Shown here piece after piece: positions 18,323 to 62,363 of a stretch of DNA of 64,000 nucleotides (position 1 is its first letter; each line of letters starts with the position of its first letter). The DNA is taken from assembly GCA_020724585.1 (NCBI GenBank), contig DYGS01000001.1, positions 486,002 through 550,001 of the forward strand, given 5' to 3'. The translations under genes and the position numbers were made by a program. The stretch comes from Candidatus Microgenomatus sp. (lineage in GTDB: Bacteria; Patescibacteriota; Microgenomatia; UBA8517). The notes beneath the pieces were generated by a model, which worked only from the letters and a program-made list of their open reading frames with translations, ran no database searches and had not been told where the DNA came from.

Positions 18323-18330
18323 CTTTGTAT

Positions 18331-37018: not shown

Positions 37019-37102
37019 GGTGCGGTGCTGGAATTGGTATACAGGTTAGTCTCAAAAACTAATGGTGGCAACACCACGAGGGTTCGAATCCCTCTCGCAC
37101 CA
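37019..37102 (+). tRNA. tRNA-Leu (anticodon CAA), class II with long variable arm
   Basis: Acceptor GGTGCGG/TCGCACC. D-arm CTG-AATTGGTATA-CAG. Anticodon stem TTAGT/ACTAA with loop CTCAAAA, giving anticodon CAA. Variable arm GGTGGCAACACC. T-arm GAGGG-TTCGAAT-CCCTC. Discriminator A. No encoded CCA. Confidence 0.8.
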
Positions 37103-38615: not shown

Positions 38616-38700
38616 GCTACAATTATTTATACGCCCGTAAATAATCCAAATCAATATATCAAAATATCGCAATATTTTGACTCCTTAATTTGTAGTTTTT

Positions 38701-39645: not shown

Positions 39646-39674
39646 AATTTAATAATACTACCTTTTAATTATCC

Positions 39675-43900: not shown

Positions 43901-44023
43901 TTCCAGTTCAGCTTCACTTTGATACGTAGATTCACGTAGGTTGTTAGCAATCTCTGAGTAGTCAGCTACAACAGTACTTTCATTATTTTGTGAAACAATA
44001 TTATAATTTTGACTATTCGACAT
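40961..44023 (-). CDS. hsdR: Type I restriction enzyme R subunit
   Basis: 1020 aa. N-terminal PD-(D/E)xK region. SF2 helicase motifs (TGSGKT, DECH). Confidence 0.9.
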   Translation of the reverse strand: MSNSQNYNIVSQNNESTVVADYSEIANNLRESTYQSEAELEKEFIKQLVSQAYEYISIKSENDLVVNLRKQLEKLNSYNFTDLEWERFFKNEIANPNQSIIEKTTTIQEDYIKNLTCDDGAIKNIYLIKKDSIHDNSLQVINQYATDEGERANRYDVTVLVNGLPLIHIELKRRGVAIQEAFNQINRYNRESFWAQSGLFEYIQIFIISNGTHTKYYSNTTRFQYVKENGGNSVKNGKRTSNSFEFTSWWADATNRPITDLVDFAKTFFAKHTLLNILTKYCVFTTDRLLLVMRPYQIVATEKILKRIEISTNYKKLGTIEAGGYVWHTTGSGKTLTSFKTAQLVSKLPYIKKVVFVVDRKDLDYQTMKEYDKFEKGAANSNKSTSILKRQLGDPEAKIIITTIQKLDRFINKNTGHTIFEDHIVLIFDECHRSQFGDMHTAITKAFKNYHIFGFTGTPIFAMNSSSGGTPNLKTTEQAFGDKLHTYTIVDAISDKNVLPFKVDYVSTVREAENIEDKKVSDIDREAILAAPERLSNIVTYIREHFDQKTKRNTFYKLKDRRLAGFNSIFAVSTIDVAKKYYAEFKKQLEGLPSDKQLKIATIYSFGVNDDDLDGMIDENSEDTTGLDVSSRDFLEKAIGDYNQMFGTSYDTSSDKFQNYYKDVSERMKNREIDILIVVNMFLTGFDATTLNTLWVDKNLRLHGLLQAFSRTNRILNSIKTFGNIICFRNLEKATNESIALFGDKEASGIVLLKAYNDYYFGYKDDGKDVRGYESLVRELLEKFPVGERIVGEQNQKDFIKLYGAILRVRNILATFDEFLGNEILTDRDIQDYHSAYIDIYNEFRKDIEVDKENVNDDIVFEMELIKQIDINIDYILGLIKKYHEDHTKNKELLLDINKAIDSSVELRNKKDLINQFISSLDIHSVVEEDWQKFVEGKKVEELEQIITSENLDHEATYRFIKNAFRNGNVATTGTEITKILPAGGRFSPTGERSKKRENVLDKLTRFFERFFNIATNDVD

Positions 44024-46601: not shown

Positions 46602-48155
46602 TCAACCTTCTATATCTTCGACGATTTTGTCAATTTCAATTCTTAATTCATTTTGTCTTGACACAATTTTTGCAATTTTGGCATTTAATTCTGCTATATT
46701 TACTACTTCTCTTTTGTTTTCTGCTACTACATAACCTGATACCCCAATATTGTAATCATTTTCTGCAACTGCCTTGTTATCGACAAGTTTTGAAAAATAT
46801 TCGATATCTGTACGATCTGTAAATGCTTTTAAGATTTTTAATCTATTTGTTTCACTTAATTTGTTTTTGTTTCCATTTCGCACAAATTCTGAAGATGCAT
46901 CAATGAAAAGTGTTTTGTTATCACTTTTACTTTTCTTTAAGACAATAATACAAGTTGCAATTGTTGTTCCAAAGAATAAATCTGGTGGTAACTGAATTAC
47001 AGTATCAATGTAATTATTATCGATTAAATATTTTCTAATTTTTTGTTCAGCTCCACTACGATATAGAACTCCTGGAAATTCAACAATTGCAGCCGTTCCA
47101 CTTGTTGAAAGCCAAGATAGCATATGCATAGTAAAGGCAAGGTCAGCCTTACTCTTTGGAGCCAATACTCCTGCAGGAGAAAAACGAGGATCGTTTATCA
47201 AAAGTGGATTAGAATCACCTTCCCATTTAATTGAATATGGAGGATTTGAAACTATTGCATCAAACGGCTCATCATCCCAATGTTTCGGATCCGTTAGTGT
47301 ATCACCAAGTGCAACATTGAAATTATTATAATTAACATCATGTAAAAACATATTAATACGACAAAGGTTATAAGTAGTAATATTAATTTCTTGACCAAAA
47401 AACCCTTGACGAACATTTTCTTTCCCTAGAACCTTAGCAAATTTAAGAAGTAAAGATCCAGAACCACAAGCAGGGTCATAAACTTTATTTACTTCTTTTT
47501 TACCAACTGTTGTAATTTCTGCTAGCAGTTCGCTAACCTCTTGTGGTGTATAGAATTCTCCTCCAGATTTACCAGCGTTAGAAGCATACATGGTCATCAA
47601 AAACTCATAGGCATCACCGAACGCGTCAATTGTATTGTCAGAATAATTACCTAATTTAAGATTTCCTATTGCTTCAACTATTTTTGTAAGTTTTTGATTA
47701 CGTTGTTCGACTGTATTTCCAAGTTTGTTTGAATTGACATCAAGATCTGCGAACAAACCCTTCAAATCATCTTCACTATCTGTGCCTTTTGCTGAATTTT
47801 CAATTTTCTTGAATACTAACGATAGAGTTTCGTTTAGATTATTATCTGCACGAGCTTTTTTGCAAACATTTACAAAAAGTTCACTTGGTAATATATAAAA
47901 CCCTTTTTCCTTTATAGTATCTACTCGTCCAAATTCTGCTTCTTTATCTGAAAGGTTTGTATAATCAAAATCTTTATTACCTCCTCTATGTTCATCAGCA
48001 TTTATATAATTAACTAAGTTTTCACTAATAAAACGATAGAATAGCATTCCTAATACATATTGTTTGAAGTCCCAGCCATCAACACTACCGCGCAAATCGT
48101 TAGCAATTTGCCATATTGTACGATGTAATTCTGCACGTTCTTGTTCTTTATTCAT
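46602..48155 (-). CDS. hsdM: Type I R-M N6-adenine DNA methyltransferase subunit
   Basis: 517 aa. HsdM N-domain. SAM motif (DPACGSGSLL). Catalytic NPPY (VSNPPYS). Confidence 0.9.
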   Translation of the reverse strand: MNKEQERAELHRTIWQIANDLRGSVDGWDFKQYVLGMLFYRFISENLVNYINADEHRGGNKDFDYTNLSDKEAEFGRVDTIKEKGFYILPSELFVNVCKKARADNNLNETLSLVFKKIENSAKGTDSEDDLKGLFADLDVNSNKLGNTVEQRNQKLTKIVEAIGNLKLGNYSDNTIDAFGDAYEFLMTMYASNAGKSGGEFYTPQEVSELLAEITTVGKKEVNKVYDPACGSGSLLLKFAKVLGKENVRQGFFGQEINITTYNLCRINMFLHDVNYNNFNVALGDTLTDPKHWDDEPFDAIVSNPPYSIKWEGDSNPLLINDPRFSPAGVLAPKSKADLAFTMHMLSWLSTSGTAAIVEFPGVLYRSGAEQKIRKYLIDNNYIDTVIQLPPDLFFGTTIATCIIVLKKSKSDNKTLFIDASSEFVRNGNKNKLSETNRLKILKAFTDRTDIEYFSKLVDNKAVAENDYNIGVSGYVVAENKREVVNIAELNAKIAKIVSRQNELRIEIDKIVEDIEG

Positions 48156-48617: not shown

Positions 48618-48965
48618 TTAAATTTTCTTCCTTAAAATAACATGTTTAAACCATTTTTCTTGAAATTCTGTTAGTTTTTCAATTTCTGAATCTGAAAAGT
48701 CTTGGCCATCTTGCGTAACAATTAATTTGTCATCGTCATCATCTGTTCTTCTGATTACTGCAACGCAAATTCCTTTAGTTTCTGTAATTGGTTTATCTAC
48801 TCCTAAAATATATGCATCTAGTTCTTCTCCATCTGCAGATTTTGTGTTTGGAATATAGCCATAGTTAACTTCATATGTAAAACCATGTTTTGGATGTTTC
48901 GATCCTAATGGTCTGTCAACTACTACATTTACTTTTTGGCCAATGAAAGTTAATGAGTTTACCAT
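48618..48965 (-). CDS. Mini inorganic-pyrophosphatase-like protein
   Basis: 115 aa. The segment ...VNYGYIPNTKSADGEELDAYILGV... parallels the ppa motif [21 protein letters not shown] found at 17724..18260. Confidence 0.4.
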   Translation of the reverse strand: MVNSLTFIGQKVNVVVDRPLGSKHPKHGFTYEVNYGYIPNTKSADGEELDAYILGVDKPITETKGICVAVIRRTDDDDDKLIVTQDGQDFSDSEIEKLTEFQEKWFKHVILRKKI

Positions 48966-49444
48966 AATTTTGTATTATATTCCTTTAGAACTCCTTCTGT
49001 AATTTCTACTTGGTTTGGAAATCTTAAATAATCTTTGAATTCATTTCTTTTAATCCATTTAATTTTTCTAATTTCAGAAGGATCTGGCTTTATATCTGAC
49101 TTCTTGCCTACAAATTTAACTATATATTGTCTTTGGGATTGACCAAGATATAACTGATGTTTTTTAAAAATTCTTTGGATAATTACTTTTAGTGGCCAGT
49201 TGTATGTAACTAAATTTTTACTTTTGAAAACAATTTCAAATTTGTTTGTTCCTAATTCTTCATGAAGTTCTCTTAATAATCCTTGTTCTTCTGTCTCACC
49301 TTTTTCAATTCCACCACCTGAAAAATTCCAATCATTTTCTCCATAGCTTACTAATTGATCAATCAAAAATTCATCTTTGTCATTAAATATAATTGCAATC
49401 GACTTTTTCCTATACAGATGTTCTATCATCCAGTTTTTAATCAT
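48959..49444 (-). CDS. NUDIX hydrolase
   Basis: Nudix box GGGIEKGETEEQGLLRELHEELG. Confidence 0.8.
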   Translation of the reverse strand: MIKNWMIEHLYRKKSIAIIFNDKDEFLIDQLVSYGENDWNFSGGGIEKGETEEQGLLRELHEELGTNKFEIVFKSKNLVTYNWPLKVIIQRIFKKHQLYLGQSQRQYIVKFVGKKSDIKPDPSEIRKIKWIKRNEFKDYLRFPNQVEITEGVLKEYNTKLW

Positions 49445-49473: not shown

Positions 49474-50469
49474 ATGAATCAAAATAAACAAAAGGATGAA
49501 AACTATCAATCTTTTCTTGAAAATCTGCATGGTAAATTAAATGCTTCTGATAATGTTCTTGAAGCTATTGTCAAAAGTTCTGTTGGATTTAGAGTTAAGG
49601 AAAAAAGAAAAGTTGTAGAGGGCGAAGTAAATGAAGTATATGATATTACACCCACACATGGTGAGAATATAATAGTTAGGATTTCAAGAGAGAAACACAA
49701 TCGTTTTGAAGCCGAAAAATGGGCATTGGATAAATGCAGGGATACTGGAGTCCAAGTTCCCGAGATACATTTGATAAGTGAGGTAGAAACAGATAAAGAA
49801 AAACTACATGTTTGTGTAGAATCTAAAATTGAGGGTGTTTCATTACAAACACTTATTAAACAAAATGCATTAAGTCAAAATGAGATTAAAGAAATAACAA
49901 TTAGTGCTGGTGAAATTCTTTCAAAAATTCATAGTATCAAAACAACAGGTTTTGGTGAAATAAACACCTTTGGTGTTGGTGAGTTTGAAACTTGGTCAGA
50001 ATACATGCTCAATCAGGACAAAAAAAGAGATCAGATCTTAGAAGAAGCAAGGAAAATAGGAGTTGATACCAAACTAGTTCAACAAGCCTTTGCTATACTT
50101 GATAAAAATAAAGATATTTATGAACATACAGATTCAAGACTAGCCCATTCGGACTATGGCATAAAACACATGCTTATTCATAAAGATAAAATAAATGGAA
50201 TAATAGATTTTGAAAATTGTAGAGGAGCAGATATTGCATACGACTTCTCTTGGTGGAACTACTTCGGACAAAACAGACCTCCAGTTGAATGGCTTATTGA
50301 AGGATACAAAAAGGATGGAAACTTAGGAGAAAACTTTGAAACAAGAATGCATTTAGTAAAAATAAGGATTGCTCTTGATCTTTTAATGTATTATGGAGAT
50401 ACAGGTCATAGTTTTGCAAAAGATATCACTGTCAGAAATTTAACTGAAGATATTACTTTCTTTAAATAG
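49474..50469 (+). CDS. Aminoglycoside-phosphotransferase (APH)/choline-kinase-family small-molecule kinase
   Basis: 331 aa. Brenner-type catalytic loop HSDYGIKHMLI and IDFENC (DFG-like) of the APH family. Confidence 0.6.
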   Translation: MNQNKQKDENYQSFLENLHGKLNASDNVLEAIVKSSVGFRVKEKRKVVEGEVNEVYDITPTHGENIIVRISREKHNRFEAEKWALDKCRDTGVQVPEIHLISEVETDKEKLHVCVESKIEGVSLQTLIKQNALSQNEIKEITISAGEILSKIHSIKTTGFGEINTFGVGEFETWSEYMLNQDKKRDQILEEARKIGVDTKLVQQAFAILDKNKDIYEHTDSRLAHSDYGIKHMLIHKDKINGIIDFENCRGADIAYDFSWWNYFGQNRPPVEWLIEGYKKDGNLGENFETRMHLVKIRIALDLLMYYGDTGHSFAKDITVRNLTEDITFFK

Positions 50470-50527
50470 GTACCAATCAAAACTTTTTTTCCTGATCAAC
50501 TTAGATAATTTATATTATAATTCCTAC

Positions 50528-51892
50528 ATGGCTAAAAAAATATCGTATGGTATAGATTTTGGTACCACCAACTCAACAATTGCTTATATCAATGAGAGGG
50601 ACGAACCTGTTAAGTTAAAAATTGACCCAAATGCTGATAATCCCTGCGTTATGCGTTCCGTGATCTATGTTAATCAAAAATTAGACATGTTGTTTGGCAA
50701 ACCTGCTGTTGACGCATACATAACAGATGTCGCTCTAAACAAAGAAAGCAAAAAAAGGATAATTGAAACAGGAAGAATGATAAAAGTCGCCCAACCTGCA
50801 AATGCAGGCGGATTTGTACCAGACAAAATTGTACCTGAAATTATTGAAGTTGAAGAGTCTGATGGAGGAAGGCTCTTGCAAGCACTTAAAAGTAATCTAT
50901 CAAGTCAAATTGTTTCTAATATTAATTTGTTTGGAAGCAACAAACCTATTGAATGGGTGGTGGGACAATTTTTAAAAGAAATGAAGCAAAGAGCTGACGA
51001 AATTATCGGAGAATCTATAAATAAAGTAGTTATAGGTAGACCTGTTGAATACGTTGGCGGTAACAATCAATTAGCCATCGACAGAATGAGATCTGCAGCA
51101 AAAATTGCCGGCTTTAAGGAGATAGAATTTGAATATGAGCCCATAGCAGCTGCATATGATTATGGAATTGATATTAAGAATAAACAAATATCACTAATAT
51201 ACGACTTCGGCGGAGGCACATTAGATATTTCAATCGTAAGATTCCCAGAAAAGGAAGTTTTAGCAAACGTAGGATTGCCAATTGGAGGTGATCATTTTAA
51301 TACAAAAATTTTTACTTCTGAACTTTCACAATATTTTGGGAAGGGTTCAAAATATGGACTAAGACAATTAAGTTTACCTGAAAGCATATTTGCTTCAATG
51401 AAAAACTGGTATTTAATATCATTATTAAAAACAGAAAGTTTTGCCAACAGTATCGAACATTTTAAATTTATGAATACCAACCCCAAAGCACTTTTAGCTC
51501 TAAAATCTTTAGTGTTTAATAACCTAGGATTTGGTATATATGAAGAAATTGAAAAAGTTAAAAAAAATCTCTCTTCAAAGGAATTTGAAAAATATAATTT
51601 TATAGCTAAAGATATTGAAATTAACACTACGATTACTAAAAATGTATTTGAGAAGATAATCCAAGATGATTTAGTTAATATAGACAAAACAATTAATAAA
51701 GCACTTAAAGCAGCAAATATAAAAAGTGAGGAAATAGACGCTGTAGCAACAACAGGAGGATCTTCTTTGATTCCCGCAATCTATAAACAGCTTCAAAATA
51801 AATTTGGAGCCAAAAAGATTAAAGAAAGTGATGCCTTTACGTCAGTTGCCGCAGGACTAGCCCACAGAGCTAAGGAAATTTTTAGTCGTTAG
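50528..51892 (+). CDS. Hsp70-family (actin-like ATPase) protein, NBD-only (YegD-like)
   Basis: GIDFGTTNS (phosphate-1), DFGGGTLD (phosphate-2) and TTGGSSLIPAI (adenosine) motifs. 454 aa, so no substrate-binding domain. Confidence 0.65.
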   Translation: MAKKISYGIDFGTTNSTIAYINERDEPVKLKIDPNADNPCVMRSVIYVNQKLDMLFGKPAVDAYITDVALNKESKKRIIETGRMIKVAQPANAGGFVPDKIVPEIIEVEESDGGRLLQALKSNLSSQIVSNINLFGSNKPIEWVVGQFLKEMKQRADEIIGESINKVVIGRPVEYVGGNNQLAIDRMRSAAKIAGFKEIEFEYEPIAAAYDYGIDIKNKQISLIYDFGGGTLDISIVRFPEKEVLANVGLPIGGDHFNTKIFTSELSQYFGKGSKYGLRQLSLPESIFASMKNWYLISLLKTESFANSIEHFKFMNTNPKALLALKSLVFNNLGFGIYEEIEKVKKNLSSKEFEKYNFIAKDIEINTTITKNVFEKIIQDDLVNIDKTINKALKAANIKSEEIDAVATTGGSSLIPAIYKQLQNKFGAKKIKESDAFTSVAAGLAHRAKEIFSR

Positions 51893-51906
51893 GATTATAA
51901 TCAATC

Positions 51907-52674
51907 ATGGCTAATAATTTCTGGGAATATTACGATCTCTTCGATAAAAATCAATATATAGATACTAAGCGTACAGATAATGAAATCAATTTCATCAAAA
52001 AGTATCTACCTTTAAATAAATACAAAAAAATAATTGATGTTGCCTGTGGTACAGGTAGAATAGCAATACCCCTTTCAAAAAGTGGTTATACTTTATTAGG
52101 TATAGACAATAATAAAGATTTTATAAATCAAGCAAAAAAGGAGGCTTTAAATAACTTCACTAATATAAATTTTATTAATTCAGACTATAGAGATTTACCA
52201 GATATCTTAGAATTTGACGCCGCAATTTTTATATATTCCTCGTTTGGTTATTTTAGCGACAGAGAAAACATAAAATTACTTAGAAGTATAAACACGAGAC
52301 TCCGAGACAATGGTCTAATTATTTTAGATAATTTAAATTATTATTGGGCCAAGAATAAACCAGAGGGTTTTTGGAAGGATTTAACTACAAGATTTGAGGA
52401 TAATTTTTTGAAGTTGCACAATTTTTCTCAAATTAAAAGGTTAAGGCTAATAACTGAGGATGACAAATATGAAAAGACTACATATAAAGTTAGATACAAT
52501 AGTGGTAAAATACAAACAGCTAGTTTTAAACAAAGACTTTTTAATAAACAGGATATGGACAATTTCCTTAAAAAGTCAGGTTTTAAAACATTAAATATTT
52601 TCGGCGACTTTGAAATGTCAACTTATACCAAAAAAAGTCCGAGAATAATTGTTATTGCTAAAAAAATAAAATAA
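51907..52674 (+). CDS. Class I SAM-dependent methyltransferase
   Basis: Motif I IIDVACGTGRIAIPL. 255 aa. Confidence 0.75.
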   Translation: MANNFWEYYDLFDKNQYIDTKRTDNEINFIKKYLPLNKYKKIIDVACGTGRIAIPLSKSGYTLLGIDNNKDFINQAKKEALNNFTNINFINSDYRDLPDILEFDAAIFIYSSFGYFSDRENIKLLRSINTRLRDNGLIILDNLNYYWAKNKPEGFWKDLTTRFEDNFLKLHNFSQIKRLRLITEDDKYEKTTYKVRYNSGKIQTASFKQRLFNKQDMDNFLKKSGFKTLNIFGDFEMSTYTKKSPRIIVIAKKIK

Positions 52675-52676
52675 GT

Positions 52677-53450
52677 ATGAAAAAAATAACAGATGTTCAA
52701 GGCCAAGTAGATTTACGTGACCTTGATATCAAAAAGGTCGGTATAACAGGATATGCATATAGAGGTATGTTGTTGCTCGGAAAAGAAATTGTTCCTGCAC
52801 AAGGAACAGCTAATTGTTTCGCCTACCTAGACAAAAGTAAAAAAGGAACACATATGTCACGCATGTCAAGGAATTTGAATCAACTAATTGACAAAACAAT
52901 TTCGCTTGATAATTTTGAACCTGTCTTACAAAAAATATATTCGGATTTAGAAACCCCTCAAATATATGTAGAAATAACAGCCAATTCAATTAGAACAAAA
53001 GAATCACCTGTATCTAAAAATGTTGGATTTGAGGAATTTAAAATTAACCTAGATCTAAAAATAGACAATGGTGACTTCTACGGAACATGTACGCTAGCAT
53101 TTACAGGTACATCTTTGTGCCCCGCATCAAAAACAAATAGCAAGCATGGTGCCCACAATCAAAGGTCAGTAGTTAAAGTCAAGTTTCCATTTGAAGAAAT
53201 CAATAAATTAGGCGACTATTTACACACAGCGGAAGAACAATTAAGCGCAATCGTGTACCCAGTAATTAAGTTAGACGACGAGGCCTATATTACAGAGAAG
53301 GCTTATGAAAATGCTAAATTTGTTGAAGATATTGTACGCGATGTTGTCAGAGGTCTCCAAAAGAACGATTTAAAATTTACATTAGTTTCATGCGAAAACC
53401 TCGAGTCAATACATACGCACAATGCATATGCTGAAATTGTTATTAAATAA
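52677..53450 (+). CDS. GTP cyclohydrolase FolE2/MptA family (DUF198)-like
   Basis: 257 aa. Contains ITDVQGQVDLRDLDIKKVGI..., GTHMSRMS and LCPASK, which parallel the FolE2 conserved DVQ, HMSR and Cys motifs. Confidence 0.55.
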   Translation: MKKITDVQGQVDLRDLDIKKVGITGYAYRGMLLLGKEIVPAQGTANCFAYLDKSKKGTHMSRMSRNLNQLIDKTISLDNFEPVLQKIYSDLETPQIYVEITANSIRTKESPVSKNVGFEEFKINLDLKIDNGDFYGTCTLAFTGTSLCPASKTNSKHGAHNQRSVVKVKFPFEEINKLGDYLHTAEEQLSAIVYPVIKLDDEAYITEKAYENAKFVEDIVRDVVRGLQKNDLKFTLVSCENLESIHTHNAYAEIVIK

Positions 53451-54724
53451 TGAATTATTTTTTGACTGGAAAAAAAATAACAGAAAACTTTGTTAACAAC
53501 TTAACTTCAGTTAATAAAAACATTAGTTTTCTTGTAGCAGGAGGATTGGGTTATGATTCAATAAAATATAAAGGGTCTAATACATACGGCGACTATGACT
53601 TTTTGTGTTTGGTTGAAAAACCTGAAGATATAGAATCAATTATTTTTAATAAAGATCTTCTTAGTAAAATGGGGTTTGACTGTAGTAAATCGAAAGACGT
53701 TTACAAAAAGGATATTCAGCTATTTAATCAAGGAGTGATATCAATTATTGGTTACTCCGGAATTGTAGATAGATACAAAACATCAATAAACTTCAGTACT
53801 TATAGTCGAATATCTTCAATGATTTCAAATCCAAATAAGAAATTCTATAAAATAAGGCACGGCGAATGTTTTAATTTGTTTATTGCTAAAGGAACAAATG
53901 GGGATGATTTAATTGTTTGTAGAATATCACCAGAAGTATCATCATTTTATAATGACAGTAAGCTTCATTTTTTAGTACCAAGCGTGGGATGGCTTACAAA
54001 CGGTGATTCAATACATTTAGGTATTTATACCGATATGATTTCAAAGGGGTACGTAGCCTACGACCAGAACAATAAACTAATAAATATACAAAAAACCATA
54101 TGGCAAAAAATGGTGCAACACGCTTCTCCTGAAATCTCATTAAAAAACGAATGGTATAGAATGTTCGCTAGTTCACATTATTTCTCGAAGAGTTTTATAA
54201 CTAGAATTAACAGATCATTAAAAGCTATTGCCTTGAGCATAAATTGCCCGCCGAGTAAAAACTACTCAACAAAGAAAATTCACAACACTCTAGTCACAAT
54301 ATTTGCTGAGAAAAAGTATTATACGCCAGATAAATTGTCTGATAAATCTGCTAAATTAGATTATTTCATTAGAAACGACAAATATTATTCACTCGCACAG
54401 ATTATAAATGATGATTCTAAAGGTAAATTAGACTTTATGAACCAACTACATTATATTAACGCAGAATCAAATAGACTTAGTAATTTAATTTCATTATCAG
54501 CAAATAAGAATGAGATACTTCCTGTAAAAATGGACTGCAAATCTGTATATGTAAATGCAGACGGTAAATTTTACTATTCAAGCAAGACAAGATCTCGGTT
54601 AAATTTACTTGCTCATCTACTAGATTCGAATAAAAAAGATGAAGAAGTTTATTCAAGCTCTTTTTCTGTACTATTCAAACAAATAAACGAGTTGAGGAAT
54701 CAGGTCACAGATTACATTAAATAA
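53450..54724 (+). CDS. Hypothetical protein with possible pol-beta-type nucleotidyltransferase motif
   Basis: The N-terminal FLVAGGLGYDS...GSNTYGDYDFLCLV fits the hG[GS]...[DE]h[DE]h pattern. 424 aa. The rest is unrecognised. Confidence 0.35.
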   Translation: MNYFLTGKKITENFVNNLTSVNKNISFLVAGGLGYDSIKYKGSNTYGDYDFLCLVEKPEDIESIIFNKDLLSKMGFDCSKSKDVYKKDIQLFNQGVISIIGYSGIVDRYKTSINFSTYSRISSMISNPNKKFYKIRHGECFNLFIAKGTNGDDLIVCRISPEVSSFYNDSKLHFLVPSVGWLTNGDSIHLGIYTDMISKGYVAYDQNNKLINIQKTIWQKMVQHASPEISLKNEWYRMFASSHYFSKSFITRINRSLKAIALSINCPPSKNYSTKKIHNTLVTIFAEKKYYTPDKLSDKSAKLDYFIRNDKYYSLAQIINDDSKGKLDFMNQLHYINAESNRLSNLISLSANKNEILPVKMDCKSVYVNADGKFYYSSKTRSRLNLLAHLLDSNKKDEEVYSSSFSVLFKQINELRNQVTDYIK

Positions 54725-54727
54725 AAT

Positions 54728-55879
54728 GTGCGTATGTCAAGTGATATAACTATAAATACTAAATTATATAAACAAATATTTGAGGAAACTACAAATATAC
54801 ACGATGATACAGTCTCAACCGTTGACCATGTTTTTGGCAGCCCTCCTTTAAGACTCATTGATAGCCACTCAAAAATGATAAAGTTTAATTCCGCGACTCC
54901 AATCTTGTGGGATACAACCAAGCCAAATATTGATAAGTACAGAGTTGAATTAATATTGGATCTTGGATTTTTATCATCTAAAAATAATGAGTATCTACTT
55001 TATAACCCGCGAGAATACTATTGTTTATCTGAAACAAGAGATGTTAATTTTAACAAGCAAAGGGAACAGTTGAAATGTATTATGAAACATCCATTCTTAA
55101 ATACTATTTCATCTAGTGATAAACAAAAATATCTTAATAGAGTTGATAAACTAATTAACATCTATTCTGAGTTGTTGCATAATAAAGCCAATTGTAGTGA
55201 TTTTTATATACAGCTGTTATCAGAAATCTATAAACTATTAGGATTCACAGATTTATCAAGTTTTATTAGCAATAAAATGATTTCACAATATAATTCAGGT
55301 CTTATTGACAAATATATTCCGGAAATGATTACCATAACAAAAAATGATGTCTTTGGGTTTTTGAATCTGCTTGATAAAGGGAGTTTCTTTACACCACCTT
55401 ATTTTAGATCAATAAAACCTAATATATATGGAGTTGATAAATTTGATAAAAATGAGGTTATCAAAAATATTGAGTTAATCATTAAGCTACTTCAGAAGAA
55501 AGTTATTTTACCTCACCATTCAATTTATTTTTGGGCTTGGGGTTTGTCTGGAATCAATCATTTTGGTAACGATTACGGCGACTTTACACAGATTGAAGAT
55601 ACACTGTTAAATTTAAATATCAAAAATAACATTTCAAAATTACAATTAACATTACCAAAACAGGATGGTTTGAATTTTGCATTTTTTAAAAATACATGCA
55701 CTTTTTCATCAAAAAAAGCATTGAGCACAACTAAATTTAATGTTAGTAATACAAAACCATCAAGGGCTAGTAATATTTGTTCAATCTATTTAAATTCAGG
55801 GGATCATTTTATTGAATATTGGAATGATTATAAAAATTACAAAAAAATATCTGAGCTAGATATGAAAAATATTGTTTAG
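54728..55879 (+). CDS. Hypothetical protein
   Basis: 383-aa ORF, tightly coupled to the upstream gene (4-bp gap). Confidence 0.35.
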   Translation: MRMSSDITINTKLYKQIFEETTNIHDDTVSTVDHVFGSPPLRLIDSHSKMIKFNSATPILWDTTKPNIDKYRVELILDLGFLSSKNNEYLLYNPREYYCLSETRDVNFNKQREQLKCIMKHPFLNTISSSDKQKYLNRVDKLINIYSELLHNKANCSDFYIQLLSEIYKLLGFTDLSSFISNKMISQYNSGLIDKYIPEMITITKNDVFGFLNLLDKGSFFTPPYFRSIKPNIYGVDKFDKNEVIKNIELIIKLLQKKVILPHHSIYFWAWGLSGINHFGNDYGDFTQIEDTLLNLNIKNNISKLQLTLPKQDGLNFAFFKNTCTFSSKKALSTTKFNVSNTKPSRASNICSIYLNSGDHFIEYWNDYKNYKKISELDMKNIV

Positions 55880-56547
55880 AGCATTCTCAATCTATTAAGT
55901 AACTCTTGATTATTATCTTCTGAAATGGATTTTGCATATCTGGTTACTGTATACGCACGTTTGTATTCGTCCATCTTATCTTGTTCGTTTAATCTAAGCG
56001 CAAGCAATAACCTTATTTTTTCTCTAGGATGAATTTCTTGGTACTCTGTAACTAATACATTCTTGCCTGCTTTCAAAGATTCCAATGCATTTTCTCGGCT
56101 ACTTTTAAATAGTCGGATCGAATAAAAGGTTAGAACATTACCAATTTTAAAATATCTATCTAATGCCTCTTCGTGACCATAATCAAACTCCTCATCTAGT
56201 AATCTACTATCTCTAACTGGCAATGGATAAAAATCAACAAACTCAATTTTATTTTGTCCTAAAAAATTAGCTGGATTTGAATCAATGCCATATCGATCAA
56301 ATTTGAGTTTTGTTAATGCCTGAACAATTTCAGAAATGTTTCTAGACTCTTTGGAAGCTATCACGTCTTGTTCAAAAACTAAAGAATTATCAACAAATCT
56401 TACATTTGTTGTGGGTGAACTTATCCCTACATCCCCCAACCAATCTCTATACCCCTGTAATTCATTTTTAATTACTTCATATGCATATTCTGTTGCTGGA
56501 ACTCTTTTATATATAGTCTGATTGTCTATATGAATTTCAGCCCTCAT
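55876..56547 (-). CDS. Hypothetical protein
   Basis: 223 aa. Overlaps the upstream P-loop gene by 11 bp. Confidence 0.35.
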   Translation of the reverse strand: MRAEIHIDNQTIYKRVPATEYAYEVIKNELQGYRDWLGDVGISSPTTNVRFVDNSLVFEQDVIASKESRNISEIVQALTKLKFDRYGIDSNPANFLGQNKIEFVDFYPLPVRDSRLLDEEFDYGHEEALDRYFKIGNVLTFYSIRLFKSSRENALESLKAGKNVLVTEYQEIHPREKIRLLLALRLNEQDKMDEYKRAYTVTRYAKSISEDNNQELLNRLRML

Positions 56548-57118
56548 AGTATTTTAGTTTGTCATCCAGTAAATTTTCTAGATGAGCCTCTGTTTTTAAG
56601 AGGGTCTCTTGAAAATTACCATTGTTTTGAATTAATTTGAATTTTTTATTCTGATGATATTTTACGTTCTTGATGCCGTGTTCCTTAATTGATCGTTTAA
56701 AATGTGTGTTAGGATATTCACCACGAACATATATTATCTCCTCTTCTACATCTAATATTACACCGCCAATAACTTTTTCATTCGAGGTTAAATACTGGGT
56801 GTCTGTTTGAACTCCGTCAAATATAGCGTTAACTCCAGTTGAATCGTATGAATCAATCATAAAATCAATAGCTTTATTGAAAATAATATTAGCTTCATTG
56901 TGTTCAAAATTCTCTAATTGATTAACAGGTATGTCTGGCCTAAAAAAACGTAGCAGTTTGCTAATAATGCCTAAGTTAACTGACTGATAAAAATCATATT
57001 TCTTAATAATCTCTTTTGTTAAGGCTGTCTTGCCCGTTGAATTATTCCCAGTTATAAAAAAGATAACAGGTGCACCTTTTTGATTGAGTTTTTTTATTTT
57101 ATCGTTTATTTCGCTCAT
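56537..57118 (-). CDS. P-loop NTPase/kinase-like protein
   Basis: Walker A FFITGNNSTGKTAL. 193 aa, the size of small nucleoside/nucleotide kinases or zeta-toxin-like kinases. Confidence 0.45.
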   Translation of the reverse strand: MSEINDKIKKLNQKGAPVIFFITGNNSTGKTALTKEIIKKYDFYQSVNLGIISKLLRFFRPDIPVNQLENFEHNEANIIFNKAIDFMIDSYDSTGVNAIFDGVQTDTQYLTSNEKVIGGVILDVEEEIIYVRGEYPNTHFKRSIKEHGIKNVKYHQNKKFKLIQNNGNFQETLLKTEAHLENLLDDKLKYYEG

Positions 57119-57164
57119 AATTTAAATTATACAGTAATAATTACGTTTGTGATAAAATCTAAAT

Positions 57165-57797
57165 ATGAATTTATATTTAGTTAGACATGGCAAAACTGAT
57201 GCAAAAGAAAATAACAAAAAACAAGATCCTACAACACCTTTAAGTGTCGAGGGCATAAAACAAGCTGAGGCTGTAGCCGATAGACTTTTAAAAGAGCAAG
57301 TAGACGTACTTATTTCAAGCAAATGGGACAGGGCATACCAAACTGCAGAATTTATATCTAAAAAACTTAGTCTTGATTTAACTACCACTGAAGGGATACA
57401 AGAAAAAGAACACAATCCAATTATCTATGGCGTAGATCGAAATAGTGAAGTATTTAAGAAGTTTAATGAAGAATCTGAAACTTTAGGTAACAACCTAGAT
57501 TGGAAATTTGAAGGCAAGGGTGAATCTGTTAGAGATTTGATTAACAGAGCGATTAAATTTCAAAAGTATCTAATTGATAATTATTCAGATAAAAATGTAT
57601 TAGTTGTAAGTCATGGACAATTTATTCGAGCCTTTACGATTATTTCTCTATTAGGTTTAGACTACAACGATGAAACATTTTATAAATTATATACAAGCAT
57701 ATCTCCAAGCAATACAGGAATAACACATTTTGAATATGATACAGAAAGAGACCATTGGGAACTTGTTTATTTTAATGACCATCTTCATATTAGATAA
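57165..57797 (+). CDS. Histidine phosphatase (phosphoglycerate-mutase-like) family protein
   Basis: LYLVRHGKT (RHG catalytic motif). 210 aa. Confidence 0.75.
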   Translation: MNLYLVRHGKTDAKENNKKQDPTTPLSVEGIKQAEAVADRLLKEQVDVLISSKWDRAYQTAEFISKKLSLDLTTTEGIQEKEHNPIIYGVDRNSEVFKKFNEESETLGNNLDWKFEGKGESVRDLINRAIKFQKYLIDNYSDKNVLVVSHGQFIRAFTIISLLGLDYNDETFYKLYTSISPSNTGITHFEYDTERDHWELVYFNDHLHIR

Positions 57798-57800
57798 ATC

Positions 57801-58541
57801 CTAAATTGTAGTTGTTGGAGCAGGGGTTGGTTCCATGGTTGAAACAACTGTAGGAATAGGAGTGGATGTTTCAGTTGGCTTTGGTGTTGGAGTAACTGTA
57901 GGAATTGGTACTGGTGTTGTTGATAATACTTCAAGATCTTGTATATCTTCAACTTCAAGTACTTTGTTTTTTGAATCATATGTACCTACTGCAAGTATTC
58001 TTTTTCCAACAAGAGAATTTAAATTAAAACCAATTGGTATTTCAAGAGTTACCGCTTCTGTAGAAGTAGTAATTAAATAGAATTTAACAGGATTAGTATT
58101 TGTTTTTGTTAATGTTCCTTTTAATGCAGTATCTTTTAGTAACTCAGGTTGTGGAGTTGGGGTTTTATTAGTGACAATTGCACTGTTAAATTTAAGGTTA
58201 GGAAAGAACATTGGAAAAACAACTCCTCCTAACCCAAATACTCCTGAAAATATAATTAAGGCTAGACCAAAAATTGTTAGTGGTTTAACCTTAATTTTCA
58301 TCTCTAACCCTTCATTTGCAAGTATTCTTTTCCACCAGTATTTAATATATACAAGTGGATTAGTTACTTTTAAATTAACAAGATCAGGTGGATTAGTAGT
58401 GTTTACACTTGTTGGGTTGTTTGTAGTTATTGTAATTGGTGGTAGTTTAGTTACATCTTCTTTTGGAACAAACTTTCCGTCAGCATCACGTTTCTGATTC
58501 TTTGCAATATTACTTCTAATTGGATCAACTGTTTCATCCAT
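57801..58541 (-). CDS. Secreted/membrane-anchored hypothetical protein with Thr/Pro-rich C-terminal tail
   Basis: One TM helix. C-terminus ...PVPIPTVTPTPKPTETSTPIPTVVSTMEPTPAPTTTI. Confidence 0.35.
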   Translation of the reverse strand: MDETVDPIRSNIAKNQKRDADGKFVPKEDVTKLPPITITTNNPTSVNTTNPPDLVNLKVTNPLVYIKYWWKRILANEGLEMKIKVKPLTIFGLALIIFSGVFGLGGVVFPMFFPNLKFNSAIVTNKTPTPQPELLKDTALKGTLTKTNTNPVKFYLITTSTEAVTLEIPIGFNLNSLVGKRILAVGTYDSKNKVLEVEDIQDLEVLSTTPVPIPTVTPTPKPTETSTPIPTVVSTMEPTPAPTTTI

Positions 58542-58619: not shown

Positions 58620-59117
58620 ATGAAACTAAACAAAATACATATATTCTTATTGATATCCTTTGCTTTTATTGCCATTTTATTTTCAACCTCAAATGTTTCT
58701 GCAGGTGGTGGTCCACAATTTGTTTGTAAAGAAATGGCTCAAAAACAAGGATGGTTAATTGATGACACAAAGTTTGATGAAGATTTATCTAGTAATGCTT
58801 GTATTTCAAGAAACCCAACAACTGAAGAAAAAGATAAAATTTTTGAATTTTGTAAGGCAGAACCAAAAGGAGAATTTAGGATTGATTGTTTAGATAAATG
58901 TAGAAAGTATTATTCTGACACTACATTTCGTGAATGTAGTAAAAATGAAATTAGCTCAATAAAATCTGCGATGTTTACATCTAAGGCTAAGAGTATTTTT
59001 AATAGACAATTAACATTAACAGAAACAATTGTTGTTGCTTTTGTGGTTGTTTTAATCTTCTACTTAATTGTTTCCTTATTTAAAAGTAAAAAATCTTCAA
59101 ATAAACAAAGTGTCTAA
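58620..59117 (+). CDS. Hypothetical secreted protein with C-terminal membrane anchor
   Basis: Signal peptide. Cys-rich. C-terminal TM helix. Confidence 0.35.
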   Translation: MKLNKIHIFLLISFAFIAILFSTSNVSAGGGPQFVCKEMAQKQGWLIDDTKFDEDLSSNACISRNPTTEEKDKIFEFCKAEPKGEFRIDCLDKCRKYYSDTTFRECSKNEISSIKSAMFTSKAKSIFNRQLTLTETIVVAFVVVLIFYLIVSLFKSKKSSNKQSV

Positions 59118-59511: not shown

Positions 59512-59778
59512 GGTAAGCGGAAGGCCGGAACGAGCGAAGCGAGTGGAGGCCTGGAGCGCACACACGATATGGGTTAGCGAAGCTCCGCGAAGCGGAGCTG
59601 AGCGGGAACCCGATGCTCCGCAACAATTCCTTCCCCTTTAACCCCTCCCTTGTTGCTCCGCTCACACATCAAAATTTTGTGGTAAACAAGTTTGTCACTT
59701 TCGTGATAAAATATGCTTTGTACTTTAGAAATTTTGAATAAAATAAGTTCGTGCCTTTTCATACAAAGGCACAAAAAC
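59512..59778. repeat. 267-bp GC-rich repeat, copy 2 (inverted relative to 38763..39030)
   Basis: Reverse complement of copy 1. Contains mutually exclusive helices GCTCCGC-gaa-GCGGAGC and GCGGAGC-n16-GCTCCGC. Confidence 0.9.
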
Positions 59779-62363
59779 TAATGTTTGGTGTCTCTTGAGA
59801 AAAATCTAATTCTGTCGCCTTTGAAGTAAAGCGGAATTGAAGCCAGCGGGCCGTTTCTGTGTTTGGCAATATCCAAAACCACATTTTCCAAATTCTCATC
59901 ATCTTCGCGCCACAAAAACATAACCACATCTGCATCCTGTTCGATGCTATTGTGAACTATGATATTATTCGCTACAAAATTAGAATTTTTTGGCACGGTT
60001 GCGTCATATACTTTTCTAACTCCTACATATTCAATTTCTTTGACTTCGTCCCAATATATGTCAGAATTCGCTAATAACTTTAACTTCTCATTTTTTATTT
60101 TTGAATAAATCTGCATAAGTCTTCTCCTACTTATTCCATTCCCAAATCTTTGTGTTCCGCTGTAAGCCCACCCCATAAGCTTATGAAATTCTCTATGTGT
60201 CATATTCTTCTCTTTAACTACCATTTTAATTAAGCTCCAAACCTCTTTTGGAATAACATCATTATTAGGATTTTCTATTATATTTCGTAAAAATTTAATT
60301 GCTTCTTTTACTTTTTCATTTTTTTTACCAACACAACCTATTTCGTTTAAAAATTTCAATTGACTTTCTTTTCCATAAATATTGATATTAAACACATCTT
60401 TGTGTCCCTTATTAATAGATTTTGATATCTTGGAGATAATTCCTAGCCGAGTTAATAAGTATTGAATTTGAGAGACAAGAGTATAACTATTTGAAGCGTA
60501 GTAGACTGTAACTTTAGATTTTTTCTTACCAACTTGTGTATGGATACAACCATCTGTTGCCCATAAATGCTTTAAAAATAATTTAATTTTAGTGTTATCC
60601 AAATTCATAACTTCATCGGGTATTAACTTTTGGTATGAATGATGACCATATATTTTTAGGTCTCTAAACCACCTAACGATTGGATTATGTCTACCTCTTG
60701 CCAATTTTCCTTTTGAAGATAAATAAAGGTGATACCAACTTTTTTGTTTAATCACCCTTGGGTTAATTTCAAACTCATCTAATGCTGCTTTTTTAAGAAT
60801 ATTAATTAAACTCATATCTGAATTTGTATAATGTAAAGGTTGACCTTCTACATAACAACCATCACCAATCATGTGAGCTAAAACAATTAGATTGCTGTCT
60901 GAAATGTTTCCCGTACCCTTAACATTAATTACTCGAGGAACGGCTATACGATCACCTATCTCCAACTTATCTAATCTTTGCCATTGTTCAAATTTCAAAA
61001 ATTTGTGATTTCCAGAGGCCACAATTTCTCTTCCACTTTTTAGTTTTAGTTTATATACCTTTTTTCTGCCACTATTAAAAACTTTAGTGACTTTTGATGG
61101 TACTAATTTCATATCTTCATTTAAGGATATAATTTCAAAGTTATCCTTACCCACAAGCTCGTCAATTCTTATTTGTTTACCTGTTGGATAAATTGTTACA
61201 AGACTATCTCCTAATAGGCATCCGCTCTCGCGAAGGTCAGAAAGTTGTGGTTTTTTAATATTTCTTGATTCCACTCCTCGAGACAGCTGTGACAATGCCA
61301 AAACAGGAACCTTAAGTTCTCTGGCTAAGTTTTTTAAACCCTGTGAAATTTCTGATACTTCTTGAACCCTATTTTCCAAATTCCTGCTTCGAGCAAGCTG
61401 GAGATAATCAACCACAATTAAATCAACTCCATGCTCTACCTGCAATCTCCTTGCCTTTGTTCTCATTTCAAGAATTGACAGAGCGGGAGTATCGTCTATA
61501 AAAAGCGGTGCTTCGGCCAAAACCCCCATGGCTGTTGAGAGTTTGGCAAAATCATCTTCCGACAGTTTACCTGTTTTTAACTTCCAAGCATCAATATCTG
61601 CCTGACTCACCAATAATCTATCAACCAATTCCTCCCTGCTCATTTCAAGTGAGAAAAAGCCAACAGGTCTTTTGGTCAAAACCGAAACATTTTGAGCAAT
61701 TGAAAGAGCCATTGTGGTTTTTCCAACACCTGGCCGTGCTGCCAGAATTATTAAATTACTTTTCTGCATTCCCGCAAGAGCACTATCCAGATCGGCAAAA
61801 CCAGTCGCGACCCCTCTTAAACCCTCCCCTTGCTTCTGCAGTTCATCAAGTCTATCAAAACTTTCTGCTAGAGTGTCTCTAACTGATGTAAATGCGCTTT
61901 TGATGGTCTTTTGCGAAAGAGAAAAAATTTCGCTTTCTGCTTTGTCTAATAATTCTTCAGATGAAACCCCAACATCAGTTGACATGCCTACAAGTTTTGT
62001 TGCCGACTTCAATAAGCTTCTCTTTATTGCAGTATCTTTAACAATTCTGCCGTAATGCTCAACATGAGCGCTGGTTGGAACTTTATTAACTATGTCCGTC
62101 AAATACGAAGCGCCGCCTATTATTTTTAAATCTTTTCTTTTTTTAAGCCTTTCAGTAACTGTCAAAACATCAACAGGCACTCTCTCTTCATACAAAGAAA
62201 GCATTGCCTCAAATATTTTTTTGTGGCGGTCATCATAAAAATCATCCGGCGACAAAAATTCAGAAACAGCAATTACTGCATCTTTATCCAAAAGAAGTGC
62301 TCCCAAAACACTTTGTTCAGCATCTACACTGTGGGGTGAGGTCTTAATATCAATATCAGCCAT
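59778..62363 (-). CDS. dnaB: Replicative DNA helicase DnaB containing a 424-aa intein
   Basis: DnaB N-domain and Walker A (ARPGVGKTTMALS). The host motif SDLRESG is interrupted by CLLGDSLV...IIVHN, then resumes SIEQDADVVMFL. The extein totals 437 aa. Confidence 0.95.
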   Translation of the reverse strand: MADIDIKTSPHSVDAEQSVLGALLLDKDAVIAVSEFLSPDDFYDDRHKKIFEAMLSLYEERVPVDVLTVTERLKKRKDLKIIGGASYLTDIVNKVPTSAHVEHYGRIVKDTAIKRSLLKSATKLVGMSTDVGVSSEELLDKAESEIFSLSQKTIKSAFTSVRDTLAESFDRLDELQKQGEGLRGVATGFADLDSALAGMQKSNLIILAARPGVGKTTMALSIAQNVSVLTKRPVGFFSLEMSREELVDRLLVSQADIDAWKLKTGKLSEDDFAKLSTAMGVLAEAPLFIDDTPALSILEMRTKARRLQVEHGVDLIVVDYLQLARSRNLENRVQEVSEISQGLKNLARELKVPVLALSQLSRGVESRNIKKPQLSDLRESGCLLGDSLVTIYPTGKQIRIDELVGKDNFEIISLNEDMKLVPSKVTKVFNSGRKKVYKLKLKSGREIVASGNHKFLKFEQWQRLDKLEIGDRIAVPRVINVKGTGNISDSNLIVLAHMIGDGCYVEGQPLHYTNSDMSLINILKKAALDEFEINPRVIKQKSWYHLYLSSKGKLARGRHNPIVRWFRDLKIYGHHSYQKLIPDEVMNLDNTKIKLFLKHLWATDGCIHTQVGKKKSKVTVYYASNSYTLVSQIQYLLTRLGIISKISKSINKGHKDVFNINIYGKESQLKFLNEIGCVGKKNEKVKEAIKFLRNIIENPNNDVIPKEVWSLIKMVVKEKNMTHREFHKLMGWAYSGTQRFGNGISRRRLMQIYSKIKNEKLKLLANSDIYWDEVKEIEYVGVRKVYDATVPKNSNFVANNIIVHNSIEQDADVVMFLWREDDENLENVVLDIAKHRNGPLASIPLYFKGDRIRFFSRDTKH
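59949..61220 (-). mobile_element. Intein (Cys1 ... His-Asn, +1 Ser) with LAGLIDADG homing-endonuclease domain inside dnaB
   Basis: Splice junctions ESG|C and HN|S. Internal LAGLIDADG-type motifs (LIVLAHMIGDGCYVEG; LKHLWATDGCIHTQ). Coordinates come from codon counting: Cys382 at 61220..61218 and Asn805 at 59951..59949. Confidence 0.85.

Follow-up and report, generated by a model that had tools for sequence, protein, structure and literature searches.

GTP is the starting point of several known branches of metabolism, namely those leading to folate and pterins, flavins, 7-deazapurines, toxoflavin and 8-azaguanine. Here we describe a gene cassette in a 64,000-nucleotide stretch of Candidatus Microgenomatus sp. 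(contig DYGS01000001.1, positions 486,002 to 550,001; hereafter the window, whose own numbering is used throughout), in which a GTP cyclohydrolase of the FolE2 type lies among three orphan protein families, NT424, X383 and K223 (424, 383 and 223 amino acids [aa]). The gene content suggests that the cassette encodes a GTP-cyclohydrolase-initiated small-molecule pathway built on these families, and we consider the chances about even that the region is an accessory and mobile cassette for the biosynthesis of a modified nucleotide or pteridine-like small molecule from GTP.

In the 8-azaguanine (ptn) cluster of Streptomyces, GTP cyclohydrolase I starts synthesis of this purine antimetabolite, and the cluster also encodes a pyrophosphatase, an N-acetyltransferase domain and a hypothetical protein, described as 'related to nucleotide metabolism' (PMC7109123). 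The cassettes described here are similar in that their cyclohydrolase would give a ring-opened diaminopyrimidine nucleotide, and in having NUDIX and pyrophosphatase or CYTH proteins, a GNAT protein (in one related locus, L014) and orphan proteins. However, they have no nitric oxide synthase, nucleosidase or efflux pump, they add an S-adenosylmethionine (SAM)-dependent methyltransferase, several kinases and a pol-beta nucleotidyltransferase, and their hosts are uncultured small-genome bacteria, not actinomycetes. Nor was a sequence relationship seen between X383, NT424 or K223 and those Ptn proteins that could be compared. Azapteridine pathways of the toxoflavin type employ ToxB (a GTP cyclohydrolase II), ToxA (a SAM methyltransferase) and ToxC, ToxD and ToxE. 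The minimal set of the cassettes we refer to below as type C, with an ADK-GTP cyclohydrolase II-CYTH fusion, X383 and a methyltransferase, has the same combination of GTP cyclohydrolase II, class I SAM methyltransferase and proteins of unclear function, although no RibD-like ToxE was seen in the cassette loci. From the kinase/CYTH fusions and the NUDIX and NTPase_I-T partners, it seems that the phosphorylated ribosyl moiety is retained, unlike in the toxoflavin pathway, where it is lost. The entry steps of pterin synthesis are catalysed by FolE2 (GCYH-IB) and then by a NUDIX pyrophosphatase and a phosphatase, and in the methanopterin pathway MptA is followed by a cyclic phosphodiesterase. The window cassette likewise has a FolE2 homologue, a NUDIX hydrolase and a histidine phosphatase, and a metallo-beta-lactamase (MBL)-fold phosphodiesterase in its relatives could be analogous to MptB of the methanopterin pathway, but no aldolase, pyrophosphokinase or dihydropteroate synthase gene was seen in any locus, and the cassette methyltransferase, nucleotidyltransferase, kinases and X383 have no place there. 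Overall, the cassette shares its first enzyme and general logic with clusters for GTP-derived metabolites but has none of the downstream enzymes that characterise these, brings in three orphan families and is a member of none of them. The first-pass annotation of the window had recognised no described defence system or biosynthetic pathway with this set of genes, and that still stands; PADLOC and literature searches for the gene combination found nothing relevant.

Gene order and conservation of the cassette

Four genes of the cassette are transcribed on the plus strand in the order methyltransferase (class I SAM-dependent, 255 aa; 51907-52674; PF13649, 1.7e-15), FolE2 (GCYH-IB fold, 257 aa; 52677-53450; PF02649, 2.3e-57), NT424 (53450-54724; assigned to the pol-beta superfamily by its motif and its AlphaFold2 [AF2] fold) and X383 (54728-55879; no family match), giving a minimal core of ~4 kb (51907-55879). 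X383 has a GTG start, which is elsewhere called at an ATG 6 nt downstream, for a product of 381 aa. Convergent with X383 and overlapping it by 4 nt is the minus-strand gene for K223 (55876-56547; no family match), which itself overlaps by 11 nt the gene for P193, a 193-aa P-loop protein on the same strand (56537-57118; Walker A and weak P-loop matches). Together with the gene for a 161-aa NUDIX hydrolase upstream (48959-49444, minus strand; PF00293), these make up the conserved core. The run of methyltransferase, FolE2, NT424 and X383 is found again in the independent metagenomic lineages L004, L005, L006/7, L011/12 and, with an NDK gene inserted, L008, and in four of these it is followed by convergent K223, an MBL gene and P193; in the window, K223 and P193 have no MBL gene between them. 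FolE2 is 52-65% identical to its window counterpart, NT424 36-39% and X383 40-46%. The arrangement is beyond chance and these genes are a conserved linked unit, so that the earlier proposal of a tightly coupled group of genes is borne out by the neighbourhood comparison, at 36-65% identity.

Our map of open reading frames (ORFs) reproduced exactly the coordinates and spacing of the first-pass annotation, and its domain calls for the APH, Hsp70, SAM methyltransferase, FolE2 and histidine phosphatase proteins were each confirmed by profile search. It had also proposed a six-gene operon (49474-55879, plus strand), and here the tight linkage stands, with gaps of 58, 14, 2, -1 and 3 nt, but the six genes are not a conserved unit. 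The first of them, for an APH-family small-molecule kinase (331 aa; 49474-50469; PF01636, 6.5e-23), was found in the cassette of the window only, with a separate APH gene beside FolE2 in L025, and the second, for a YegD-like ATPase consisting of the Hsp70 nucleotide-binding domain (NBD) only (454 aa; 50528-51892; PF00012, 1e-35), has an orthologue in one other lineage, where it is directly upstream of the methyltransferase (L011, also L012; 55% identical); both are therefore accessory. In the other direction the unit begins upstream of the previously proposed start, at ~48618, because the NUDIX gene, which is divergent from the APH gene with a 29 nt spacer, is kept in related clusters. A 115-aa pyrophosphatase-like ORF (48618-48965, minus strand; PF00719, 2.8e-09) overlaps the NUDIX gene by 7 nt and is translationally coupled to it; it probably belongs to the unit, possibly as an accessory part confined to the window. 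Scans for promoter-like and terminator-like sites gave no excess over shuffled sequences.

Related loci depart from the window arrangement (type A) in several ways. In type B (L009/10 and L013), X383 is accompanied by an LPG_synthase_C-like protein, ADK and GTP cyclohydrolase II (fused in L013), NTPase_I-T, NDK and NUDIX, and the L009 locus also holds a DegT aminotransferase. Type C (L015-L024) consists of a 640-664-aa fusion of ADK, GTP cyclohydrolase II and CYTH, then X383, then a methyltransferase homologous to that of the window. Type D (L025), which was reached via a distant NT424 relative, is without X383 and encodes APH, FolE2, a 298-aa protein, an NT424-methyltransferase fusion, a dTMP-kinase-like P-loop protein and NUDIX. 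A further locus, L014, has FolE2, X383, CYTH, ADK and GNAT. A strict rule that FolE2 always occurs with NT424 is weakened by L014, which has FolE2 directly before X383 with no NT424 between them.

The recurrent partners are thus NDK, ADK, dTMP-kinase-like, NUDIX, NTPase_I-T, CYTH, His_Phos, GNAT, DegT aminotransferase and LPG_synthase_C-like proteins, all of which are predicted to act on nucleotides or small-molecule phosphates. Many of the components are also found fused. One example is an 803-aa protein in L029 with NT424 at residues 5-420 and X383 at 443-802, with a NUDIX gene after it. NT424 is joined to the methyltransferase in P0038, P0039, P0042, P0045 and P0048, and P0049, P0050 and P0053 combine it with a C-terminal domain that weakly resembles APH or choline kinases; P193 and MBL form a 513-aa protein in L005; and there are fusions of ADK with GTP cyclohydrolase II, with and without CYTH, and of NTPase_I-T with NUDIX (L006 and L011). 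The fusions, the tight coupling and the conserved order argue for a single pathway. The first-pass annotation had suggested the synthesis and handling of a modified nucleotide or pterin-like compound, and this theme is strengthened, as X383 is always by a GTP cyclohydrolase and its partners are nucleoside monophosphate (NMP) kinases, NDK, NUDIX, NTPase_I-T, CYTH, phosphatase and methyltransferase proteins.

Two of the type A cassettes have an additional small nucleotidyltransferase of the NTP_transf_2 family beside them (219-220 aa; L006:5197-6585 and L011:1635-2297) with no counterpart in the window; it weakly matches the PADLOC candidate PDC-S09, and in L006 it adjoins a family-less 169-aa gene. 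In L008 (4636-6571), a gene for an Ldh_2-family dehydrogenase and one of the PEP-mutase/isocitrate-lyase family are directly before the methyltransferase on the same strand, a hint that this form of the pathway has an additional donor of carbon units.

The contig from which the window is taken is 744 kb long. All of the relatives are from metagenomes or metagenome-assembled genomes (MAGs) with a GC content of 26-37%, except for L029 at 13.9%; GCA_020429545.1 and JBDRFY01 are among the MAGs that carry the cassette. The gene for the NT424-X383 fusion in L029 (63-2474; contig logan:SRR32406577_490888) contains 32 in-frame TGA codons, 21 of which align with columns dominated by glycine, invariant glycines included, and this points to genetic code 25 (UGA=Gly). 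Code 25 is known from Gracilibacteria and Absconditabacteria, and we infer that the cassette has a host range within the candidate phyla radiation (CPR; Patescibacteria).

The orphan families and the enzymes around them

X383 has no match in Pfam, NCBIfam, PADLOC or PDB sequences and is very rare, with 8-9 clusters among 5.8e9 proteins, a single locus (L013, an unclassified MAG) among 185,579 species-representative genomes, and 11 metagenome loci, several of them from 0.1-0.2 um groundwater filtrates. A broader profile search added only one fragment, and no relatives were found in IMG/VR viral contigs or PLSDB plasmids. Residues H278, F279, G280, D282, Q306, T308, D313 and K343 are invariant in 17 sequences, and all full-length members have an N-terminal DH..SPP.R.(I/V)D(S/G)H motif. 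The neighbouring cyclohydrolase is the strongest clue to its substrate. In all 12 lineages whose flank is readable, X383 adjoins a GTP cyclohydrolase, which is FolE2 in six (the window, L004/11, L005, L006, L008 and L014) and GTP cyclohydrolase II, unrelated to FolE2, in the other six (L009, L013 and L015-L018). This coupling to two unrelated folds predicts that the substrate of X383 is the ring-opened GTP product, and X383 is presumably a new enzyme and the hub of the system.

The window FolE2 presumably catalyses the first step of the pathway. It matches the Pfam family GCHY-1 (PF02649) with 194.9 bits against a cut-off of 25, residues 5-252 corresponding to positions 2-260 of 260 in the profile, but is below the NCBIfam equivalog cut-off (NF010200; 177.2 bits vs 215), and the score with the MptA model is lower still (93.8 bits against a cut-off of 220); by these scores it is a paralogue or orthologue that has diverged. 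Its alignment with the solved structures 2r5r, 3d2o and 8g6c extends from end to end (E 2.5e-41 to 5e-35) and, relative to 2r5r and 3d2o, it retains the motifs KGTHMSR, TSLCPxSK..GAHNQRS, DE.Y.TE and ESIH.H. At the positions of C147, H159 and E201 in the Neisseria gonorrhoeae enzyme, which we take to have ligand roles, the residues are conserved, although the second cysteine of the CPC motif is an alanine, and the enzyme is apparently intact. The nearest NCBIfam neighbours of the methyltransferase are small-molecule methyltransferases, and it shares 38-46% identity with its orthologues from type A loci and 28-33% with those of type C; over its full length it also matches the C-terminal domain of the NT424-methyltransferase fusions (E 1e-13 to 5e-8).

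NT424 is also rare. A word-indexed search of 5.8e9 proteins gave three clusters and two relatives only, and an exhaustive profile search of 1.84e9 representatives found 36. There was no match in Pfam, NCBIfam, PADLOC or PDB sequences, including to the NTP_transf_2, ANT/KNTase, CD-NTase, CCA-adding and MNT families, and no relatives were found in IMG/VR viral contigs or GenBank phages. The first-pass annotation had noted a pol-beta-type nucleotidyltransferase motif, and this is real; the signature hG[GS]x9-13Dh[DE]h is present (VAGGLGYDS...GDYDFLCL), and in 24 family sequences G31, Y35, S37, Y40, D48, D50 and D88 are invariant and G30 and G32 nearly so. An AF2 model made with three sequences had a predicted local distance difference test (pLDDT) score of 45, and we used a model from the 24-sequence alignment, with a pLDDT of 92.1 and a predicted TM-score (pTM) of 0.91. 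Foldseek comparison of this model with the PDB matched only enzymes with the pol-beta fold: ANT(4'), Tam41, Pol beta, Cid1, CCA-adding enzymes and CD-NTases, with probabilities of 0.97-1.0 for the first four of these but all at E>1e-3, and with superposition limited to the N-terminal ~125 residues (~115-140 aligned). A viral structure library gave the same picture, with one nucleotidyltransferase-like model at 4.8e-4. We are confident in the prediction that NT424 has a pol-beta nucleotidyltransferase core fold, and as pol-beta folds alone were matched, at E>1e-3 and over the N-terminal part only, it represents a new family inside a known superfamily.

The kanamycin nucleotidyltransferase ANT(4') (PDB 1kny and 6p01), an aminoglycoside-type enzyme, gives the best fold matches and offers a useful comparison, as it shares the GG...DxD pol-beta core, acts on small molecules and co-occurs with APH-type kinases. 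However, its match to NT424 is distant (Foldseek E ~3e-3, TM-score 0.22-0.35, identity ~10%) and confined to the N-terminal region, and NT424 has in addition a large C-terminal part and belongs to no Pfam family. NT424 is present only in FolE2-type loci and in none of five lineages with GTP cyclohydrolase II.

K223 orthologues with 43-45% identity occupy the same position in L004, L005, L006 and L011. There is no Pfam match to K223 even at E=10 and no PDB sequence match. The possibility that it is an APH or protein kinase was examined and is not supported; hhalign against the window APH kinase gave a probability of 0.1, comparison by hidden Markov model with APH-like domains was negative, and the likeness to a kinase catalytic loop is a D-x4-N ... 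D motif resemblance only. P193 has an invariant Walker A motif (GNNSxGKT) and orthologues that are 49-51% identical, and sub-threshold matches to Zeta_toxin, CPT and AAA_18 recur in four of them, from which it is probably a small-molecule kinase of the zeta-toxin/CPT class; a sequence-profile search against PDB sequences gave noise only.

Of the remaining proteins, the Hsp70-like ATPase is matched over the first ~240 of 599 positions of the PF00012 profile and over positions 4-449 of 450 of PRK11678 (YegD-like; 5e-46), but with 157.4 bits against a cut-off of 331, and by these scores it is an NBD-only relative of the YegD kind, not an orthologue. The APH kinase is under every NCBIfam cut-off for resistance kinases. 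The NUDIX protein is 47-51% identical to the NUDIX half of the NTPase_I-T fusions and 37% to the L008 NUDIX protein. A 210-aa histidine phosphatase of branch 1 is encoded to the right of P193 (57165-57797, plus strand; PF00300 His_Phos_1, 1.5e-34) and has sub-threshold NCBIfam matches to PspA, the alpha-ribazole phosphatase CobC and others. His_Phos_1 genes are also found in the L006 and L011 cassettes, at another place in the order and with only 29% identity to that of the window.

A candidate pathway from GTP

A plausible course for the pathway can be proposed. The FolE2-type cyclohydrolase would open GTP's imidazole ring, with C8 released as formate. GTP cyclohydrolase II releases pyrophosphate itself, and the FolE2 product retains the triphosphate; since NT424 is confined to FolE2-type loci, we propose that it carries out a pyrophosphate-releasing transfer on or with the triphosphate-bearing product, a step for which GTP cyclohydrolase II alone would provide the equivalent in cassettes of the other types. 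The NT424 reaction could then be pulled forward or trimmed by the NUDIX hydrolase and the pyrophosphatase-like protein. X383, as the only invariant partner of the cyclohydrolase, would perform the pathway-specific transformation of a ring-opened or pterin intermediate, and the SAM methyltransferase would methylate the product. Phosphates may be added by P193 and APH (elsewhere by ADK, NDK and dTMP-kinase-like proteins), and possibly by K223, and removed by the histidine phosphatase in the window and by MBL, NTPase_I-T or CYTH in the relatives. This would yield a methylated heterocycle carrying phosphate or nucleotidyl groups, possibly a nucleotide analogue or a dinucleotide-type cofactor.

Several observations weigh against this proposal. 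Each chemical step in it is inferred from gene content and linkage; X383 and K223 have no detectable relatives with known function; no third catalytic carboxylate was assigned in NT424; and the role given to NT424 is weakened by L014, where FolE2 is directly upstream of X383 without it. Among the Pfam annotations of ~15 distinct loci there are none of FolB/K/P, QueD/E/C, RibD/H/E, ToxC/D/E or nitric oxide synthase, and with no canonical downstream enzyme in any of the loci, a name cannot be given to the product. An Rfam search of the window and 12 loci at the gathering thresholds found only tRNAs and one RNase P RNA and no riboswitch, and neither a riboswitch nor a regulator points to a ligand. 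In addition, NUDIX, NTPase_I-T (the ITP/XTP-ase family), NDK and ADK are also ordinary house-cleaning and salvage enzymes.

This last point, which extends to the pyrophosphatase and the histidine phosphatase, raises the alternative of a lineage-specific housekeeping function in salvage or pool sanitation, with FolE2 feeding folate, queuosine or flavin-type synthesis and the orphans acting as non-orthologous replacements. The cassette FolE2 is closely similar to genuine FolE2 enzymes over its full length, several of the loci are embedded among housekeeping genes, and the flanks in the window are chromosomal (GyrA/B, ClpB, DnaB and type IV pilus genes), all of which are consistent with such a function. 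We nonetheless consider it quite unlikely. Housekeeping genes would be widespread, yet X383 is present in one of 185,579 species genomes and NT424 in 36 of 1.84e9 representatives; the island around the window cassette differs in composition and carries a recombinase; FolE2 is under its equivalog cut-off (177 vs 215); the FolB/K/P, QueD/E/C and RibD/H/E genes were seen in no locus; and APH-, ANT-like, zeta/CPT-like and GNAT enzymes typify the secondary modification of small molecules.

If the proposed conversion of GTP to a modified nucleotide or pteridine-like compound is correct, then the cassettes define a new branch of GTP-derived metabolism, with key steps performed by families (X383, K223 and NT424) that have no characterised relatives. 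Ultra-small uncultured bacteria are thought to have minimal biosynthesis, and a dedicated pathway for a nucleotide analogue or cofactor in such organisms, including one that uses code 25, would be informative on their biology.

The genomic island and the question of defence

The cassette is within a ~20-kb segment with a GC fraction of ~0.30, compared with 0.35-0.40 in the flanks. The left edge is at a tRNA-Leu(CAA) gene (37019-37103), directly after which is a minus-strand gene for a large serine recombinase (Resolvase, Recombinase and Zn-ribbon domains; 37019-38672 for the two together), and the island runs to ~59 kb. It contains a type I restriction-modification (R-M) operon (hsdS, 44013-45257; hsdM, 46602-48155), and between hsdS and hsdM is a Shedu SduA-like gene (441 aa; 45273-46598, minus strand) with a C-terminal nuclease domain (Pfam 4.6e-17; PADLOC SduA 1.4e-17). 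The island location reported in the first-pass annotation is thus real, as judged by low GC content, the recombinase at the tRNA gene, and the R-M and SduA-like genes. No convincing direct repeat that could represent att sites was found flanking 37-59 kb. Genes for a staphylococcal-nuclease-like protein (171 aa) and a trypsin-like peptidase (426 aa) are beside the R-M operon (39130-40955, minus strand). On either side of the island are housekeeping genes: upstream those for type IV pili, GyrB, ClpB and GyrA, and downstream one for DnaB that contains an intein.

From this location the first-pass annotation had suggested an anti-phage role, and the wider comparison does not sustain it. In a second lineage, L006/7, the cassette adjoins a T5orf172 gene and an R-M system different from that of the window, but only 2 of ~9 lineages with readable flanks have R-M genes adjacent to it, and the other loci are surrounded by genes for GreA, TsaD, RNase J, Lnt, sigma factors and RNase P RNA. 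PADLOC-DB v2 searches with the window proteins and the accessory proteins of the relatives gave no specific match for the core, and nothing for NT424, X383, K223, FolE2, MBL, the ADK-GTP cyclohydrolase II-CYTH fusion or the pyrophosphatase-like ORF; the matches were generic, of the methyltransferase domain to mad2, a weak kinase match, the NUDIX box to the candidate PDC-S07, and the small nucleotidyltransferase. No effector (nuclease, TIR, SIR2 or pore) or sensor was found among the cassette proteins across all loci. Given the lack of specific PADLOC matches, effectors, sensors and viral homologues, the data do not support a defence system of the classical kind.

A different form of defence would be chemical, in which a GTP-derived nucleotide analogue poisons the polymerases of viruses or competitors, with the kinases raising the analogue to a triphosphate and the NUDIX, pyrophosphatase and phosphatase proteins protecting the producer. 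This concerns the role of the product and is therefore compatible with the conversion of GTP proposed above. Prokaryotic viperins provide a precedent, as they make ddhNTPs that poison viral polymerases, and this chemical antiviral defence is encoded next to nucleotide kinases and sometimes in defence islands. The cassette could be analogous in the idea of converting an NTP to an analogue, in having the enzyme beside nucleotide kinases and in having no protein effector; unlike viperins, however, it has no radical-SAM enzyme, there is no homology, and an antiviral activity is hypothetical. The association with R-M, SduA-like and staphylococcal-nuclease-like genes in a low-GC island by a tRNA with a serine recombinase, and with R-M and T5orf172 genes in L006/7, fits with a chemical defence, as do the patchy, very rare distribution and the modular swaps of analogous enzymes, which are typical of conflict systems. 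NMP kinases, NDK and NTP pyrophosphatases would likewise suit the making and control of a non-canonical NTP, and a protein effector is not required. We consider this role unlikely all the same, given how few lineages have R-M neighbours and how many sit among housekeeping genes, that no core protein matches PADLOC beyond generic NUDIX-box and small-nucleotidyltransferase matches to candidate single-gene entries, that no sensor or regulator is present in the loci, and that viral contigs and phage genomes contain no homologues and so show no sign of counter-defence exchange. A more specific proposal, which we regard as somewhat doubtful, is that NT424, X383, the GTP cyclohydrolase and the methyltransferase build a new GTP-derived methylated purine- or pteridine-like nucleotide in CPR-type bacteria, which would be either antiviral or antimicrobial, as for viperins and in keeping with the mobile island, or a dinucleotide-type cofactor. 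Should the product be bioactive, it would be relevant to antiviral or antimetabolite discovery.

The R-M neighbours, adjacent in two lineages, could also be explained if a guanine-derived base were put into DNA or RNA, as for the 7-deazaguanine of Dpd systems, with X383 or NT424 installing it. Pol-beta nucleotidyltransferases often act on the 3' ends of nucleic acids, in line with the CCA-adding and Cid1 fold matches of NT424, and potentially related genes are found near two cassettes: an AlkD-like DNA_alkylation gene three genes beyond P193 in L006, just past two NUDIX genes, and an EVE-domain gene 6 kb away in L008. However, the TGT/DpdA-like transglycosylase, QueC/D/E, and helicase or nuclease partners are absent, the methyltransferase resembles those acting on small molecules and not on DNA or RNA, the nucleotidyltransferase structurally closest to NT424 acts on small molecules, and most of the loci have no R-M neighbour, all of which make nucleic-acid modification very unlikely as the purpose of the cassette.

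Immediately to the right of the cassette are two family-less genes with hydrophobic stretches, one coding for a 246-aa Pro/Thr-rich protein (57801-58541, minus strand) and the other for a 165-aa protein (58620-59117, plus strand). They are beside the cassette only in the near-identical contig copies L001 and L002, and in no related lineage. Beyond them, the DnaB gene (59778-62363, minus strand) holds an intein with a LAGLIDADG homing-endonuclease domain (Intein_splicing, 2.3e-31; LAGLIDADG_3, 1.9e-22). Upstream of the island, a ClpB-like ORF with a TTG start (18325-20436, plus strand; 703 aa) matches the ClpB model from position 149 onward only, and its N-terminal domain may be absent or separately encoded.

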